Source of the DNA: Octopus vulgaris
Taxonomy: Eukaryota
Direction of reading: 5' to 3'
Assembly: GCA_951406725.2 (NCBI GenBank)
Contig: OX597838.1
Coordinates: 38,626,001 to 38,690,000 of the forward strand
Length of the DNA stretch: 64,000 nt
Numbering within the stretch: position 1 is the first letter of the stretch; every line of letters begins with the position of its first letter. Under the pieces are notes generated by a model. The model saw nothing but the letters and a program-made list of their open reading frames with translations, was not told the DNA's origin and ran no database searches. Positions 42,833 through 58,920 of this stretch are shown here, one piece after another. Position numbers and translations under genes: made by a program.

Positions 42833-42869
42833 CATTCTGATGAAGGACTAGCGTCCGAAACGTCAAATG
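42833..42869 (+). ncRNA. Minimal hammerhead in an element abutting (TA)n at 42685
   Basis: CATT-CTGATGA-A-GGAC.TAGC.GTCC-GAAA-CG-TC-AAATG. Confidence 0.8.
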
Positions 42870-50636: not shown

Positions 50637-51474
50637 TTATAAAATGAGATAGGGGTTGAAAATTCAACCCACCATGGGATAATATATATCCAATATACTG
50701 CTAGATAGGTACCCAACAAAAATTAATACATAGATGTTAGAAATTGTCAAGCAATCAGTTCATCTATTGTATTAAATGGGTAAGGGTAATAATATTACCG
50801 TAAATTAATACTACAAAATTAGAGAATGGAGAAACATACTTAAATCAATAAAGCATCAACTATCCGATGATACTCAATCCATACTTTAATACACCATTAC
50901 ATAGGAGTAAAGGCAATATATAAAATGAAATGAGATATACAGTAATAGTAAAAGTAAAAGTAAAAGTAAAAAGATAAAGAGATATAAGTAAAAAATTACA
51001 AATACAATATGCAAATAAATCAAAACTGACAGCTGTTTCGGCAGTGAGGACAGTCATACCTCATTTAACCTATAAGCCATAAAGGCAGGTATAAATGAGG
51101 CATTAACAAAGATGCCCCACGGCCTCTTCAGAGAATTAAATTAAATTTGTTATAATAGTGAAAAATATTATATAATCATATACATATAAATATAAAAATA
51201 TAAAAAAGTAAAATATAAAAACTTATACATCATAATGCTACACTTGTATAATATAATACATATTTGTACAAAAAGGAAGGTAACCAGAACAAAATAAAAC
51301 AAAATATATAACAGTGTATATATAATATTAATAAGTACCGATATCATACATATTTAGCTAATAGTTTTTTTATAAAAAAAGGGGCTAACACATATGGAGA
51401 TGAAAAATAATAATAATTAAATCCGTGGTACAGTTCATAAAATTCTAAAGCTATAAAAGTTAATAAAAATTACT

Positions 51475-51514
<40 letters not shown>

Positions 51515-53249
51515 GTAATAATAATAAAAAATAATAAAAATAGATACAGTTAAGTTATCACCAAGTCCATCCTTCCAAGATCGAAATAACTATGAGTTAA
51601 GAAATGCTGACCACTAGGTAAAGAAAATTTAGATTAATTCGATTGGCTATTGGTTTGAAATTTAAATCACAAAAGAAAATTATACGGTTGGTTAGTCAGG
51701 GAACGCCAATATTCACACACGCATCTACAGATCAATCGCACATACACACATAGTTATATGTATATACATACACTTGTACATATACATAATCATAAGCAAC
51801 AACTAACACTTAGATAAACAAATAGGGAAGCAACCATGCTAACACTAAGTCCTTCAAAATTATAACTGAGCCTCAATAACAAAAAAAGAACCATCCATGC
51901 ATTCTATAAAATATTTAATTAAGATATAAATGTAATTTTAAATATCAGTATGTTACTAATTCAGATAATTATTTCATGGGTAACTTAAAATTTGTAACAC
52001 CGGTTTGTTGCAGAGTAAACATACGGTTGTTAGATTTATCGTAAGTTTGTTATGATTTAAAGTACGCTAAATTATAAAATATAAAATATAAAATATATTA
52101 ATTTAGATATTATAAATAAGTCACTTATTAACTTAATAAATATAGTGCCAAAATATATCAGTTTAGGCAATAAAAAATAGAGGGGGAAGTATTAATGTAA
52201 ACGCTTATGAGAACATCACAGAAATTTTAAATAAATTTTATATTATAAAGACTTAATATGAAAAGAGATAAAATAAATAAAAAGGAGTAAATACGAAGGA
52301 ATAAATACGGTTATACACATAATTATAAGTACAAACTAGTATATATGTATTCATATATTATTAAAATAAATAAAAATAAATGATAGATATGTATGTATAA
52401 AACTACACCAGTATAAGTAAATAAGTAAAGAATAAATAGGTAACAAATTAAATGACTTGATATGTATGTAAACATCCACACTTAAATAGGCAAATAAATA
52501 AATAAATAGAAGACTAGATGCAAATATTGATAATATTACAATAAAATGGGAAATAAATAAAAATAAATAAAGTGAATATATATATTTTATTTTATATTGT
52601 TGAAAGTAAATATGTATGGAAGGATAGTTTAAAGTACAGATCCAGAGGACTATAGATATAAACTAAATATATGAGGCTGGTAACAATTATAAAGCAAAAT
52701 GCATGTAAATGAGAAAATGAAAAAAATGAAAAAGGTTTATCAGTGAATAACATAAGATACAAATTAAGGTGAGTACAAAAAGACCAAATATATAATAAAA
52801 ACCTTCCAAATCAGCACATACAAAAAACCCATAATCTCAACCTAAACCCACCAAACTCACAAAAGGCTCTCATATATTACATATTATACAATATCATTAC
52901 ATTATCCAGAGCTAGGTATCTAACCAAGATATACATATATACTTTGCAATATACTATGCAATATTGGAAAACTTCAAAAATCACACATTACAAGGCAAAT
53001 AACAAAATGAATATGTTATTTTATGTCATATTGCATTTCTCTTAAAAAAAACAAACAAAAACCCACATACAAAAACCAAGAAACCAATAATACTAGACAC
53101 ATCCAATTAGTTATTATACAAATGTAGCTATAAAAATTATAAAATTATGAAATTTATAAAATGTATACTTTAGAATTATAGAAGACCACAGGTATATTTA
53201 GTTAAAGAAGGGAATTAAAAAATTGATAATAGTGGAAGTGCTAAGTTCT
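50637..53249 (-). repeat. 3' pseudo-LTR (~2.61 kb, very AT-rich)
   Basis: Direct repeat of 56231-58844. By eye only one T indel (T7 vs T8) and one G/A substitution differ. Confidence 0.95.
51022..51135 (-). ncRNA. Type I hammerhead ribozyme with extended stem II (pLTR copy 1)
   Basis: Minus strand reads CTGAAGA-GGCCGTGGGG...TGCCTCATTTA/TAAATGAGGTA...CCTCACTGCC-GAAA-CAGCTG-TC. Stem III is palindromic and the cleavage triplet is GUC. Stem I is weak. Confidence 0.8.
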
Positions 53250-54582
53250 ATTTGAATCTAGAAAAGGTGAACGGTAGCCTATGAATACAAAAGAAGCTTT
53301 TCTCATTAATGTTATTAATAATTTGCCGACCCGCTTTAATAATGAAGAAAATTTCATTAATACATAGAGAGCATTTTTTATTTTTTCCATTATACACAGG
53401 TGCTGAAGTTAGTATTTTCCAGTTTAATCTAAAATCTAAGTTCTTACTTTTAAGTTCCCAAATATATGCACTTAGCCCTGTAGAGTACATTCTATTTTTA
53501 TTCCTAAAAGTATATCTATGATAATTCCATCTTTGTTTTATGCTATTCATAGTTGCCCCGATATACACTCTACTACTCAATTGTGTATCTACAGTGCATT
53601 GGTAAACTACCTCCTTCCTGAGGCATTGATTACCAAATACACATTTATTTTTATTTCTGCAATTACAAAGATTAACAGAATGAGGAAATCTAAGATTGGA
53701 CACCACCCCTGTACTACTATTCACATTATAAGTGTTACAATTGTTATCATCATCCAAACCCAAAATCAACGAATGAGTTAATTCCACATTATCGGCTATA
53801 TTCCTATCACTAGTACTAGTATTGGTAGTAGTGGTATGATCTAATACATTTATATTATCTCTGACAGGTATGGTGCACTCATTATTAGTAAGGAGGTTGC
53901 TCCCATTTGTTCCAAGAAAATTTCTATTCCTATTATTAATGAAGAGGGGCAAGTTTTCCTGGTCTAAATTCAATTTTCTATCCTTATAGAAGTGATCTAG
54001 TTTCTTGTTATTAAAAGAGGAGATGATGGTGGCTAGATTATGAGTAATGCTATATCCCACTCTAACAGTACCGTTGTTAATTAAAGGACTAAATTTATTC
54101 CTATCCTTACCAAAATGCCTAAAAATAATATTATGCAAAGCTCTCACTATGTTTGTTTTAATCTGCATTGCATACGGGATAATCAACCAAAGAGTATCCT
54201 TATCAGAATTAGGATTGCCTATAGAATTAATGTTATTTGTAAAAATCCTATTCGTAGACCAACTCATAGGATTACTATTCTTACCACTGTCATTGTTATG
54301 TCTATCTATATCAATATTACCATGGTTATTGCGCAAGTAAACTTTACCATTATCATGTCTACCATAAGTTTTAATTCGTATATTATTATTAATATTACTA
54401 CTACTACTCGTATGTTTAGATCTATTTGAGCTACCGTTCACCTTTCCAAGGTTAACGTCACTTCTACATTTATTATAGGTGTTATCATATATTCTGTTTT
54501 TACTATTCTTATGTATATTGTTGATTATCCTAAATCTATTTGTGTTGTTCTTGATAGTTCTACCTCCATTAGGGGGTTCCCC
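53248..54582 (-). CDS. PLE RT thumb/linker + GIY-YIG endonuclease (C-terminal part of the same ORF, -1 frame)
   Basis: This frame is open from 54582 (upstream of the annotated GTG) to TAG at 53248-53250. Motifs: CNCRNKNKCVFGNQCL zinc knuckle, VVYQ...VYIG, KQRWNYH, LSAYIWELK, CSLCINE, terminal CIH. Confidence 0.9.
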   Translation of the reverse strand, partial: GEPPNGGRTIKNNTNRFRIINNIHKNSKNRIYDNTYNKCRSDVNLGKVNGSSNRSKHTSSSSNINNNIRIKTYGRHDNGKVYLRNNHGNIDIDRHNNDSGKNSNPMSWSTNRIFTNNINSIGNPNSDKDTLWLIIPYAMQIKTNIVRALHNIIFRHFGKDRNKFSPLINNGTVRVGYSITHNLATIISSFNNKKLDHFYKDRKLNLDQENLPLFINNRNRNFLGTNGSNLLTNNECTIPVRDNINVLDHTTTTNTSTSDRNIADNVELTHSLILGLDDDNNCNTYNVNSSTGVVSNLRFPHSVNLCNCRNKNKCVFGNQCLRKEVVYQCTVDTQLSSRVYIGATMNSIKQRWNYHRYTFRNKNRMYSTGLSAYIWELKSKNLDFRLNWKILTSAPVYNGKNKKCSLCINEIFFIIKAGRQIINNINEKSFFCIHRLPFTFSRFK

Positions 54583-56090
54583 TTAGGTATAAACCAAATC
54601 TTACTTTTATATCCTGCCTTAAGTAATGCTGCATTGTATCTATCACAGTGTTTGTTAAAAATTTCCTCGTTTGAGGATAAACTAGAAATTCTTTGACTAA
54701 TGCTACGCACTAGTGCATTTTTAATTTGAGGGGGGTGATTACTAGAACGGTTAATGTATATTAGGTTAGAATTAGGTTTAATATAGGGTTCATGTAAACC
54801 ATTAGTAATGTTACAATTAACATCTAAATAATTAGCAGAATAATTTTCACTTTCAATGATAATGGATAAGCCGAAGCTTTTAAAAAATTTGTTTATTCTT
54901 TTTTTCAGAAGATCTAATCTCCTATTTGATGTATTCCTAACACAAAATAAGGCGTCATCCCTGTATAATCCGCCTTTTAATTCAGGGAATTCCCTACTAA
55001 AGTTATCCAATAGATACATCCCAACTAGATCAGTCACCTCCGCTGAGTCCGGCGATCCCATTGTGATATCGAACAAGTTGGGTGTGTCCTTTCTAGCCCA
55101 AAGTTTATTATCAAACTCTATTAAAGTTTTCCTGGCTGTTAGTATAACCTTAATCTCCCCCATACTTAATTTAGTGTGTTTTCTAGCAAAAATTAAGGAC
55201 TTATTTAATATAATAGGGTTAATTGAAGTGTAATAATTCTGTATATCGAATTGTATAAATTTATTTCTATTATAGCTAAAGTTGTTACTGTCACAGACCT
55301 TAATGGCAGAAAACCAATCCAAAGCACCCTGAGTATTCTTCCAAAGGTTTAGTTTGATTTTATTGCGGATGGTGGGTAGATATTTATCTAGAATGAGTTT
55401 ACTTAGTCTGCCTAAGTCAGATTTAGTGGGGCAAATTAATCTGACCTGTGTGTTTCCAAGAAAATTCTCTTTATGATCCTTTAGTGTAATTCTCGGTCTG
55501 GATGGGGTGTAGGGTTCCGTTTTTTCTTCTAGGTAGTAGTCAAATATGATTTCTCTGATCTCCAGGTTCAGCTTTCTAAGTGTACTAGAAGGTACTACTT
55601 TGTATTTCTTGGTTATTTCCTTGTGAAGAAGATCATGATATGCAGTAATGTCAATGTTGTAGATGTTGTTAGTTTTGTCAGAATGTGTTAGAATGCCACT
55701 CTTACCTTTGAGAGTTCTAATTAAGTCTTTCAATTCTCTTTGGTGCGGGTTATATCTTAAAGGATGATTTCTAAATTTTATGTTTTTTACAGTCTCCCAT
55801 AGTTCTTGTTCAAAATTGTCTAGATGTATATTTGGTGGAGGAGACTTTCTAGATTTAAATGTAGTGCTTGTTAGTTTTAATATTTCTTCATAGGTGCTTC
55901 CAATTCCATTACGGATCGTTTCTCCAGTGTGTTGTTGGTTTATTTTACTATTATAGTTCTCATGGTGGAAAATCCTCCATCTGATCCTATGGATGAATTC
56001 ATTCATTCTATAAATTAGTTCTTTAGTGTAATGGTCTTTGGTAGGGATAGGTACATCCTTCATTGATGAATTGATCAGTATTTTCTCCAT
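54525..56090 (-). CDS. PLE reverse transcriptase (N-terminal part of a frameshifted ORF)
   Basis: First ATG is at 56090. Motifs SMKDVPIP, IHRIRW, DKTNNIY, ITLKDHKENF...RLICPTKSDLG, FDIQNYYTSI, MGSPDSAEVTDLVG, GLYRDDAL, YLDV, YINRSSNHPP are typical of PLE/Naiad RT. Confidence 0.93.
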   Translation of the reverse strand: MEKILINSSMKDVPIPTKDHYTKELIYRMNEFIHRIRWRIFHHENYNSKINQQHTGETIRNGIGSTYEEILKLTSTTFKSRKSPPPNIHLDNFEQELWETVKNIKFRNHPLRYNPHQRELKDLIRTLKGKSGILTHSDKTNNIYNIDITAYHDLLHKEITKKYKVVPSSTLRKLNLEIREIIFDYYLEEKTEPYTPSRPRITLKDHKENFLGNTQVRLICPTKSDLGRLSKLILDKYLPTIRNKIKLNLWKNTQGALDWFSAIKVCDSNNFSYNRNKFIQFDIQNYYTSINPIILNKSLIFARKHTKLSMGEIKVILTARKTLIEFDNKLWARKDTPNLFDITMGSPDSAEVTDLVGMYLLDNFSREFPELKGGLYRDDALFCVRNTSNRRLDLLKKRINKFFKSFGLSIIIESENYSANYLDVNCNITNGLHEPYIKPNSNLIYINRSSNHPPQIKNALVRSISQRISSLSSNEEIFNKHCDRYNAALLKAGYKSKIWFIPKGNPLMEVELSRTTQIDLG

Positions 56091-56230
56091 TCTTCTAGCA
56101 GTAATGATCAAAGGAACAAATATACTACACTAGGGTGTATTCACATGCACTATTAATATTTAAATCAATAAATGGATGCTTATATTACACCAGTATGAGC
56201 AATTCAGGTTCCTCAAAAGATAAATTTAGG

Positions 56231-57069
56231 TTATAAAATGAGATAGGGGTTGAAAATTCAACCCACCATGGGATAATATATATCCAATATACTGCTAGAT
56301 AGGTACCCAACAAAAATTAATACATAGATGTTAGAAATTGTCAAGCAATCAGTTCATCTATTGTATTAAATGGGTAAGGGTAATAATATTACCGTAAATT
56401 AATACTACAAAATTAGAGAATGGAGAAACATACTTAAATCAATAAAGCATCAACTATCCGATGATACTCAATCCATACTTTAATACACCATTACATAGGA
56501 GTAAAGGCAATATATAAAATGAAATGAGATATACAGTAATAGTAAAAGTAAAAGTAAAAGTAAAAAGATAAAGAGATATAAGTAAAAAATTACAAATACA
56601 ATATGCAAATAAATCAAAACTGACAGCTGTTTCGGCAGTGAGGACAGTCATACCTCATTTAACCTATAAGCCATAAAGGCAGGTATAAATGAGGCATTAA
56701 CAAAGATGCCCCACGGCCTCTTCAGAGAATTAAATTAAATTTGTTATAATAGTGAAAAATATTATATAATCATATACATATAAATATAAAAATATAAAAA
56801 AGTAAAATATAAAAACTTATACATCATAATGCTACACTTGTATAATATAATACATATTTGTACAAAAAGGAAGGTAACCAGAACAAAATAAAACAAAATA
56901 TATAACAGTGTATATATAATATTAATAAGTACCGATATCATACATATTTAGCTAATAGTTTTTTTTATAAAAAAAGGGGCTAACACATATGGAGATGAAA
57001 AATAATAATAATTAAATCCGTGGTACAGTTCATAAAATTCTAAAGCTATAAAAGTTAATAAAAATTACT

Positions 57070-57109
<40 letters not shown>

Positions 57110-58844
57110 GTAATAATAATAAAAAATAATAAAAATAGATACAGTTAAGTTATCACCAAGTCCATCCTTCCAAGATCGAAATAACTATGAGTTAAGAAAT
57201 GCTGACCACTAGGTAAAGAAAATTTAGATTAATTCGATTGGCTATTGGTTTGAAATTTAAATCACAAAAGAAAATTATACGGTTGGTTAGTCAGGGAACG
57301 CCAATATTCACACACGCATCTACAGATCAATCGCACATACACACATAGTTATATGTATATACATACACTTGTACATATACATAATCATAAGCAACAACTA
57401 ACACTTAGATAAACAAATAGGGAAGCAACCATGCTAACACTAAGTCCTTCAAAATTATAACTGAGCCTCAATAACAAAAAAAGAACCATCCATGCATTCT
57501 ATAAAATATTTAATTAAGATATAAATGTAATTTTAAATATCAGTATGTTACTAATTCAGATAATTATTTCATGGGTAACTTAAAATTTGTAACACCGGTT
57601 TGTTGCAGAGTAAACATACGGTTGTTAGATTTATCGTAAGTTTGTTATGATTTAAAGTACGCTAAATTATAAAATATAAAATATAAAATATATTAATTTA
57701 GATATTATAAATAAGTCACTTATTAACTTAATAAATATAGTGCCAAAATATATCAGTTTAGGCAATAAAAAATAGAGGGGGAAGTATTAATGTAAACGCT
57801 TATGAGAACATCACAGAAATTTTAAATAAATTTTATATTATAAAGACTTAATATGAAAAGAGATAAAATAAATAAAAAGGAATAAATACGAAGGAATAAA
57901 TACGGTTATACACATAATTATAAGTACAAACTAGTATATATGTATTCATATATTATTAAAATAAATAAAAATAAATGATAGATATGTATGTATAAAACTA
58001 CACCAGTATAAGTAAATAAGTAAAGAATAAATAGGTAACAAATTAAATGACTTGATATGTATGTAAACATCCACACTTAAATAGGCAAATAAATAAATAA
58101 ATAGAAGACTAGATGCAAATATTGATAATATTACAATAAAATGGGAAATAAATAAAAATAAATAAAGTGAATATATATATTTTATTTTATATTGTTGAAA
58201 GTAAATATGTATGGAAGGATAGTTTAAAGTACAGATCCAGAGGACTATAGATATAAACTAAATATATGAGGCTGGTAACAATTATAAAGCAAAATGCATG
58301 TAAATGAGAAAATGAAAAAAATGAAAAAGGTTTATCAGTGAATAACATAAGATACAAATTAAGGTGAGTACAAAAAGACCAAATATATAATAAAAACCTT
58401 CCAAATCAGCACATACAAAAAACCCATAATCTCAACCTAAACCCACCAAACTCACAAAAGGCTCTCATATATTACATATTATACAATATCATTACATTAT
58501 CCAGAGCTAGGTATCTAACCAAGATATACATATATACTTTGCAATATACTATGCAATATTGGAAAACTTCAAAAATCACACATTACAAGGCAAATAACAA
58601 AATGAATATGTTATTTTATGTCATATTGCATTTCTCTTAAAAAAAACAAACAAAAACCCACATACAAAAACCAAGAAACCAATAATACTAGACACATCCA
58701 ATTAGTTATTATACAAATGTAGCTATAAAAATTATAAAATTATGAAATTTATAAAATGTATACTTTAGAATTATAGAAGACCACAGGTATATTTAGTTAA
58801 AGAAGGGAATTAAAAAATTGATAATAGTGGAAGTGCTAAGTTCT
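56231..58844 (-). repeat. 5' pseudo-LTR (tandem copy)
   Basis: Starts ttataaaatgagataggggttg like 50637 and ends agtggaagtgctaagttct like 53249. Offset is 5594-5595 bp. Confidence 0.95.
56616..56729 (-). ncRNA. Type I hammerhead ribozyme (pLTR copy 2)
   Basis: Identical to 51022-51135. Confidence 0.8.
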
Positions 58845-58916
58845 GGATTGAGTATCATCGGATAGTTGATGCTTTATTGATTTAAGTATGTTTCTCCATT
58901 CTCTAATTTTGTAGTA
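58845..58916 (+). repeat. Inverted pLTR fragment at PLE 5' end
   Basis: Exact reverse complement of 50809-50880 / 56403-56474. Confidence 0.92.
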
Positions 58917-58920
58917 TATA

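Follow-up and report, generated by a model that had tools for sequence, protein, structure and literature searches.

Long-armed, dimer-type hammerhead motifs in a Hydra-type Penelope-like retrotransposon of Octopus vulgaris, and a circular RNA as its candidate template

Hammerhead motifs in Penelope-like elements (PLEs), their action as dimers, and the hypothesis of a circular RNA are already known from the literature. Cervera and de la Pena 2014 (PMC4209133) described minimal PLE hammerheads of type I with a palindromic stem III, proposed that they act as dimers, and put forward a circular RNA as the PLE template. The Hydra clade of PLEs with a C-terminal endonuclease (EN+; Craig et al. 2021, PMC8557442) targets (TA)n and combines a pseudo-long terminal repeat (pLTR) that has an inverted arm with a 3' hammerhead. 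Animal non-LTR retrozymes carry a hammerhead once per tandem unit; circular RNA (circRNA) intermediates have been shown for them and an origin from PLEs has been proposed (PMC7229834; bioRxiv 10.64898/2026.07.22.740005). We analysed 64,000 nucleotides of the Octopus vulgaris genome (assembly GCA_951406725.2, contig OX597838.1, positions 38,626,001 to 38,690,000; this whole stretch is called the window), which contain a Hydra-type PLE with type I hammerhead motifs and a palindromic stem III. Its hammerheads differ from those in PMC4209133 in helix II, which is 6-8 bp there and an interrupted rod of ~33 predicted pairs here.

Two identical type I hammerhead motifs, one per pLTR, lie on the minus strand, that of the open reading frame (ORF). 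The upstream motif (56609-56737) has the core CUGAAGA at 56725-56719, the stem II rod at 56718-56634, GAAA at 56633-56630, the palindrome CAGCUG at 56629-56624, and a predicted cut after C17 at 56622; in the downstream motif (51015-51143), CUGAAGA is at 51131-51125 and the predicted cut follows C17 at 51028. The two C17 positions are 5,594 nt apart, which is one repeat unit, with one hammerhead per unit. An initial annotation of this DNA had placed paired hammerheads in both pLTRs, in ORF sense and with GUC sites 5594 nt apart, and both the sequence and the minimum free energy (MFE) fold agree with it. The type I core consensus (C3-U4-G5-A6-N7-G8-A9, G12-A13-A14, A15.1-U16.1, H17, G10.1-C11.1) is present, and G8-A9 and GAAA are invariant in 18 of 18 aligned rows. 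Stem II is 85 nt long rather than the ~90 nt first stated, while its description as a nested rod held: the MFE fold contains all four helices named earlier, plus an additional GUUA/UGAC helix. Its MFE is -38 kcal/mol (z -6.36), with none of 200 shuffles equally stable and -27.6 for the opposite strand. The palindromic stem III, ACAGCUGU, was likewise correctly described as being of the dimer type, with a stable intermolecular duplex (-11.1 kcal/mol) and an unstable hairpin (+2.4). Taken helix by helix, stem II is strong and shows covariation, the stability of stem III depends on the dimer form, and stem I is weak, with 2-3 core-adjacent pairs in the window family and 4-7 in other families. An Rfam scan gave 17 matches at E<=10, with no hammerhead among them. 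Further hammerhead-like motifs in the window were observed at 42837 (plus strand), 17713 and 4209 (both minus), with stem II lengths of 13, 42 and 21 nt, respectively.

Long arms were found across the genome. A pattern search for the hammerhead core with a 6-nt stem III insert, whose matches include decayed and chance ones, returned 20,549 matches with arms of 41-71 nt (control 263) and 4,345 with arms of 72-101 nt (control 211), together ~24,900 (control 474), against 2,308 with arms of 10-40 nt (control 248). Surveys with short stem II limits can therefore miss most of the hammerhead motifs of a genome. The window family has 1,377 genome matches to its own hammerhead pattern. The studied loci contain 86 distinct long-arm motifs, of which 56 gave folds with z below -2. 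Among the first 60 listed pattern matches, 35 had both unconstrained inner stem III pairs complementary, in 10 different palindromes (shuffled control: mean 8.1, maximum 18 in 2,000). Loci found by the reverse transcriptase (RT) protein alone, which are free of pattern bias, had a sense hammerhead downstream in 17 of 23 cases; sixteen of these have arms of 55-97 nt, and one, located after a second endonuclease match, has a 14-nt arm.

Covariation across family members, a check suggested along with the initial annotation, turned up compensated pairs in both stem II and the palindromes. With kinship ignored, 8 of 37 stem II pairs had changed on both sides in the window lineage (18 rows, 93.4% paired), as had 10 of 25 in the lineage with 53-55-nt arms (14 rows), and RNAalifold, run independently, showed compensation at 5 of 10 proximal pairs. 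The core, the palindrome, and the proximal part of the rod persist in RT families down to ~55% identity, accompanied by compensatory changes. Stem II sequences cannot be aligned between families, and the length varies freely (42-101 nt), while pairing is kept, best near the core.

Related elements outside this group have short arms. A metagenome scan with a single protein found no relative, while an alignment-based scan found 77 related loci on contigs. A hammerhead was present in 58 of the 77, and all 58 arms measure 10-29 nt (reversed control 0); the lone listed value of 64 nt stems from a tie-break in L296, where two motifs of 25 nt occur. In an RT tree of 48 own-genome, metagenome, and database rows, midpoint-rooted and with the arm label of L061 provisional, 16 own-genome rows and four database proteins split from 28 short-arm rows at 100/100. 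The four database proteins, one of which is named Argonauta hians by its source, were placed by RT alone. Judged from these sequences, the long arm is a trait of the whole clade. In most outgroup hammerheads (L230-L306), the stem III insert measures 7-8 nt and could close into a 3-bp hairpin, unlike the 6-nt palindromes of long-arm motifs from RT matches, and arm length and dimer dependence may be linked.

Read along the minus strand, the window element consists of an inverted stub (58917-58844), a 2,614-nt repeat, the ORF, and a second repeat, with (TA)n adjoining both ends. The upstream pLTR (56231-58844, minus strand, 2,614 nt) is a 5'-truncated second unit that begins at the ORF stop codon, and the downstream pLTR, or 3' region (50637-53249, minus strand), ends 391 nt beyond the cut, in (TA)n. 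The stub, or second arm (58844-58917, plus strand, 74 nt), ends at the +220 site, also in (TA)n. The two repeats differ by one substitution and one indel over 2,614 nt. Insertions have two end sites, which in window coordinates lie ~+220 and +391 to +402 past the cut, with one site typically found on each arm. Between +220 and +391 lies a tail of 171 nt (50637-50807, minus strand; upstream copy 56231-56401). A TCCATT motif (50825-50830, minus strand; upstream copy 56419-56424) sits ~20 nt before the first end site, and a GGGUUGAA/UUCAACCC hairpin (50653-50670, minus strand; upstream copy 56247-56264) directly precedes the second. In other families, paired ends were found near +35/+154, +60/+215, and +172/+218.

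All 22 RT-selected copies run past the cut; a motif scan assigned 9 of their ends to the first site and 11 to the second, and direct reading added 2 more. We sampled 95 arms from the first 100 entries in a list of 1,380 anchor matches, after discarding one row that had no anchor; 80 of these arms reach +20, and 73 of the 80 pass -19, reading across the cut. A C precedes all 188 exact copies of the post-cut 23-mer, and a search for three mismatching bases at the cut found 0. Over the 205 nt after the cut in 13 tandem loci, copies within a locus differ by 2 indels and no substitution in a total of 2,661 nt, compared to 3.41 substitutions per pair between loci (78 pairs), which argues that both repeats are probably rebuilt from one template in each cycle. 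One arm (L047 plus L165) extends for ~9.5 kb, or 1.7 units. Non-coding arrays of 353, 534, 545, and 594 nt also have one hammerhead per unit, near-identical units (up to ~10), and (TA)n ends. These retrozyme-like arrays, with PLE-type twin arms, were observed at L161 (534 nt), L162 (594 nt), L163 (545 nt, ~10 units), and L164 and L210-L223 (353 nt); long arms occur in the families with 534- and 594-nt units.

We also observed a hotspot of arm-to-arm junctions ~500-600 nt upstream of the cut (window ~57,120-57,220), where a short palindrome and an (AAT)n run lie close by, and 18 of 52 arms have their 5' ends at -500 to -599. A transcription start there was considered and not adopted, as several arms join symmetrically at the palindrome, where the two cDNA arms may anneal. 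Low contig depth upstream of the hammerhead in sequencing run X1 was not counted as evidence.

The reading we favor, with a probability of about 0.5, is dimer-gated double cleavage with a ligated circle as the template. The two motifs of one transcript would pair through their stem III palindromes and cut together, and the released 5,594-nt unit would be ligated into a circle, presumably by a host RtcB-type ligase as in retrozymes (PMC7229834). RT would then start ~220 and ~391 nt past the junction and copy round the circle, giving identical repeats; insertion ends are equated with RT start sites by analogy to PAc, the Poseidon element of the green anole (Frangieh et al. 2024, PMC11167929). 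We infer cleavage and dimer action, as well as ligation and RT starts, the latter two by analogy. The genomic copies themselves display the motif with its covariation, both end sites, arms that read across the cut or exceed one unit, and homogenized repeats, a pattern that a circle would give directly. Of the earlier proposal of a circular or linear monomer template, the circular form is a hypothesis that dates from PMC4209133 and fits the genomic copies, and the linear form is disfavored, given that 22 of 22 copies run past the cut and ~73 of 80 arms read across it. Several observations count against the favored reading. Stem I of the window copy has 2 pairs adjoining the core and then U-U mismatches, the monomer MFE fold pairs the core wrongly with stem III, and PLE hammerheads cleaved poorly in vitro (PMC4209133). 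The covariation signal of the window lineage may rest largely on 3 distant rows, with counts uncorrected for relatedness, and the distal helix of the 53-55-nt lineage is 61% paired as drawn. In PAc, hammerhead mutants inserted normally in vitro, and no RNA-seq reads start or end at the cut in the data described (PMC11167929). The ends of seven sampled arms fall between -6 and +18; this weak excess (Poisson P 0.007-0.04, uncorrected) may point to some cleaved linear RNA or to a pause of RT ahead of the rod. Finally, a ligated junction and an uncut tandem are identical in DNA, and the circle and strand transfer on uncut RNA lead to identical genomic predictions.

Such a transfer, which we consider possible if somewhat doubtful, would have RT start at the end sites of the upstream repeat on uncut linear RNA, reach the RNA 5' end, and jump by homology to the downstream repeat, much as in retroviral minus-strand transfer; the hammerhead would then trim read-through transcripts or enable cap-independent translation. 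It yields the same homogenized repeats and arms of more than one unit, and unprocessed RNA was the dominant substrate of PAc in vitro (PMC11167929). The ATG follows the predicted cut by 532 nt and has 9 ATGs upstream of it, and self-cleavage is able to promote translation without a cap (PMC13725137). A contig from X2, a run guessed to be RNA, bridges the cut at 56579-56724, which is compatible with uncut RNA, ligated RNA, or DNA. However, jumping on uncut RNA leaves unexplained a dimer-requiring palindrome kept in 10 sequence forms, and arrays with one hammerhead per unit and up to ~10 near-identical units would need many error-free jumps. A plain linear cut-to-cut monomer, prolonged by end-to-end template jumps, could account for the seven near-cut arm ends and for two long-arm arrays that start at +3 and +14. 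We nevertheless think it very unlikely, because the observed pattern would need seamless jumps: none of the 22 RT-selected copies has its 3' end at the cut, the junction is seamless in 188 of 188 copies, and the 5' ends examined in the 353-nt family are all at least +16 from the cut. It is similarly improbable that the hammerhead is a passenger or near-inactive relic, its long arm a tolerated growth in an AT-rich genome whose PLEs also enlarged their linkers and untranslated regions. Naiads do spread although they lack canonical hammerheads, and the view of hammerheads as PLE parasites has been raised by Craig et al. (PMC8557442); the ORF (947 vs ~700 aa), the unit, and the tail are all enlarged, so arm growth may belong to a general trend. 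Yet a passenger would not readily explain the core, palindrome, and proximal rod retained through compensatory changes down to ~55% RT identity.

As for the arm itself, we read stem II as a selected rod of free sequence. The initial annotation had offered stem II as an RT-binding handle, an idea that gained little support, with the sequence unalignable between families, the length variable, and short-armed arrays in the same genome (a 26-nt arm in the 545-nt array, whose downstream region resembles long-arm relatives, and a 14-nt arm in the 353-nt family); we consider a role in RT specificity unlikely. Our preferred guess, and the most likely role, is that the arm would help a core that has a weak stem I and lacks the classical loop-loop contact to fold, or to become active with the aid of a protein. 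TCCATT, putatively an RT/EN recognition element, and the near-end hairpin are better candidates for what RT recognizes. In 18 of 42 arm classes (reversed control 4), TCCATT occurs in the 230 nt that follow the cut; it lies ~20 nt before the first end wherever the first end is seen, and hairpins precede the second end. A wider picture would be a deep Hydra-type clade with a new architecture, in which a 40-100-nt rod, linked with a strict 6-nt dimer palindrome, is a cleavage-gating, protein-docking arm, and whose autonomous elements replicate through a 5.6-kb coding circular RNA and have long-armed retrozymes as parasites; we put this forward as speculation that is rather more likely wrong than right.

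The Hydra-type RT-GIY-YIG ORF (53248-56129, minus strand; first ATG at 56090) is broken near 54,570, where a homopolymer run in the RT-EN linker carries a frameshift, into frames of 534 and 444 aa. A monomer carrying the whole coding ORF, as first proposed, therefore fails in the window copy. The ORF is 947 aa here, compared to ~700 in most database relatives, and unbroken natural copies measure 955-962 aa from stop to stop. Among 16 loci chosen by frame length, the linker frameshift recurs in 13, and 3 are unbroken. A long-read artifact was ruled out, since short-read contigs of the DNA-like run X15 are mostly broken as well (3,536 of 17,984 summed depth unbroken), and programmed frameshifting is unlikely, since unbroken natural copies exist. 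ORF-spanning contigs of X1 and X2, two runs guessed to be RNA, carry the unbroken frame. The RNA-guess evidence consists of assembled contigs from 4 of 23 runs, in which neither RNA ends nor starts nor circles are visible, and no run among the listed holders of element sequence is recorded as RNA. The broken frames in 13 of 16 loci and in most of the X15 depth, with unbroken frames in X1 and X2, suggest that a defective subfamily spread in trans by efficient mobilization; the window copy was likely moved by the protein of unbroken copies. It was observed that the most abundant young subfamily (L040-L050, L068) is frameshifted between RT and endonuclease and yet spread, with further indels shared by some copies. 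An intron in the leader was considered and rejected, the single joint seen being without GT-AG ends. At 56698 (A21 of stem II), X1 contigs read the sense A as G in 85.8 of 177.9 summed depth, while none do in X2, X9, or X15; one genomic copy matches this pattern. At 56537, G was found in 0 of 126 genomic copies. The A-to-G differences at 56698 and 56537 could reflect A-to-I editing or an allele of another individual.

By the motif features of the published clade definition, rather than by a tree, the element is a Hydra-type PLE. In the unbroken copy L031, RT is followed by a C-terminal GIY-YIG endonuclease in a single ORF (YRDD; VVYQC...VYIG). The features common to the Hydra clade (PMC8557442) are RW[K/R], DKT, CxCX5C, CxxC/CxH, E/N, and the lack of CCHH; the protein here has IRWR and SDKT, with RW[K/R] variable among relatives, a linker CNCRNKNKC (CxCX5C), CSLCINE...INE...CIH (CxxC and CxH beside conserved E and N), and no CCHH. 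One long-arm RT family (L054, L055) was observed to be without the CxCX5C linker cysteines. Pfam gave nothing above cut-off for the ORF or its relatives.

Earlier work covers PLE hammerheads, their action as dimers, and the idea of a circle; a long-rod stem II as a clade trait appears new. The literature searched, including passages of PMC3088659, PMC7761336, and a 2026 preprint, held no long-rod stem II as a PLE clade trait and no 120-175-nt tails; this survey was made without Lunse et al. 2017 and Arkhipova et al. 2017, either of which could describe long arms. For the role of the hammerhead in PLEs and the rebuilding of pLTRs, this young family offers clean genomic constraints, namely fixed ends beyond the cut, read-through, and homogenization in each cycle, and its natural arm-length variants of 14-100 nt are suited to direct tests.

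Retrozymes are non-coding, with circRNAs of ~170-400 nt and a canonical short stem II (PMC7229834; bioRxiv 10.64898/2026.07.22.740005), whereas the element here encodes RT and EN. A 5,594-nt RT-EN unit is not the non-coding tandem unit of a few hundred nt by which non-LTR retrozymes are recognized, and the arrays L161-L164 have such units. PAc likewise has two end sites downstream of the cut that define a tail; they are RT start sites there and would be here. It belongs to a different clade, and its hammerhead overlaps the ORF start, in contrast to the 532 nt that separate cut and ORF here (PMC11167929). The atypical hammerheads of Selaginella PLE-X1, two plant families of another clade, have a long loop II (29-35 nt) and are flagged as deviating from the canonical structure (File S2 of PMC8557442), with a loop there and a long rod here. 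Compared to the Hydra clade as described in PMC8557442, the published tail is 30-40 bp against 171 nt here, and the unit is generally <3 kb, a tendency rather than a definition, against 5.6 kb; no Hydra row of File S2 has a stem II above ~25 nt, against 85 nt in the octopus element.

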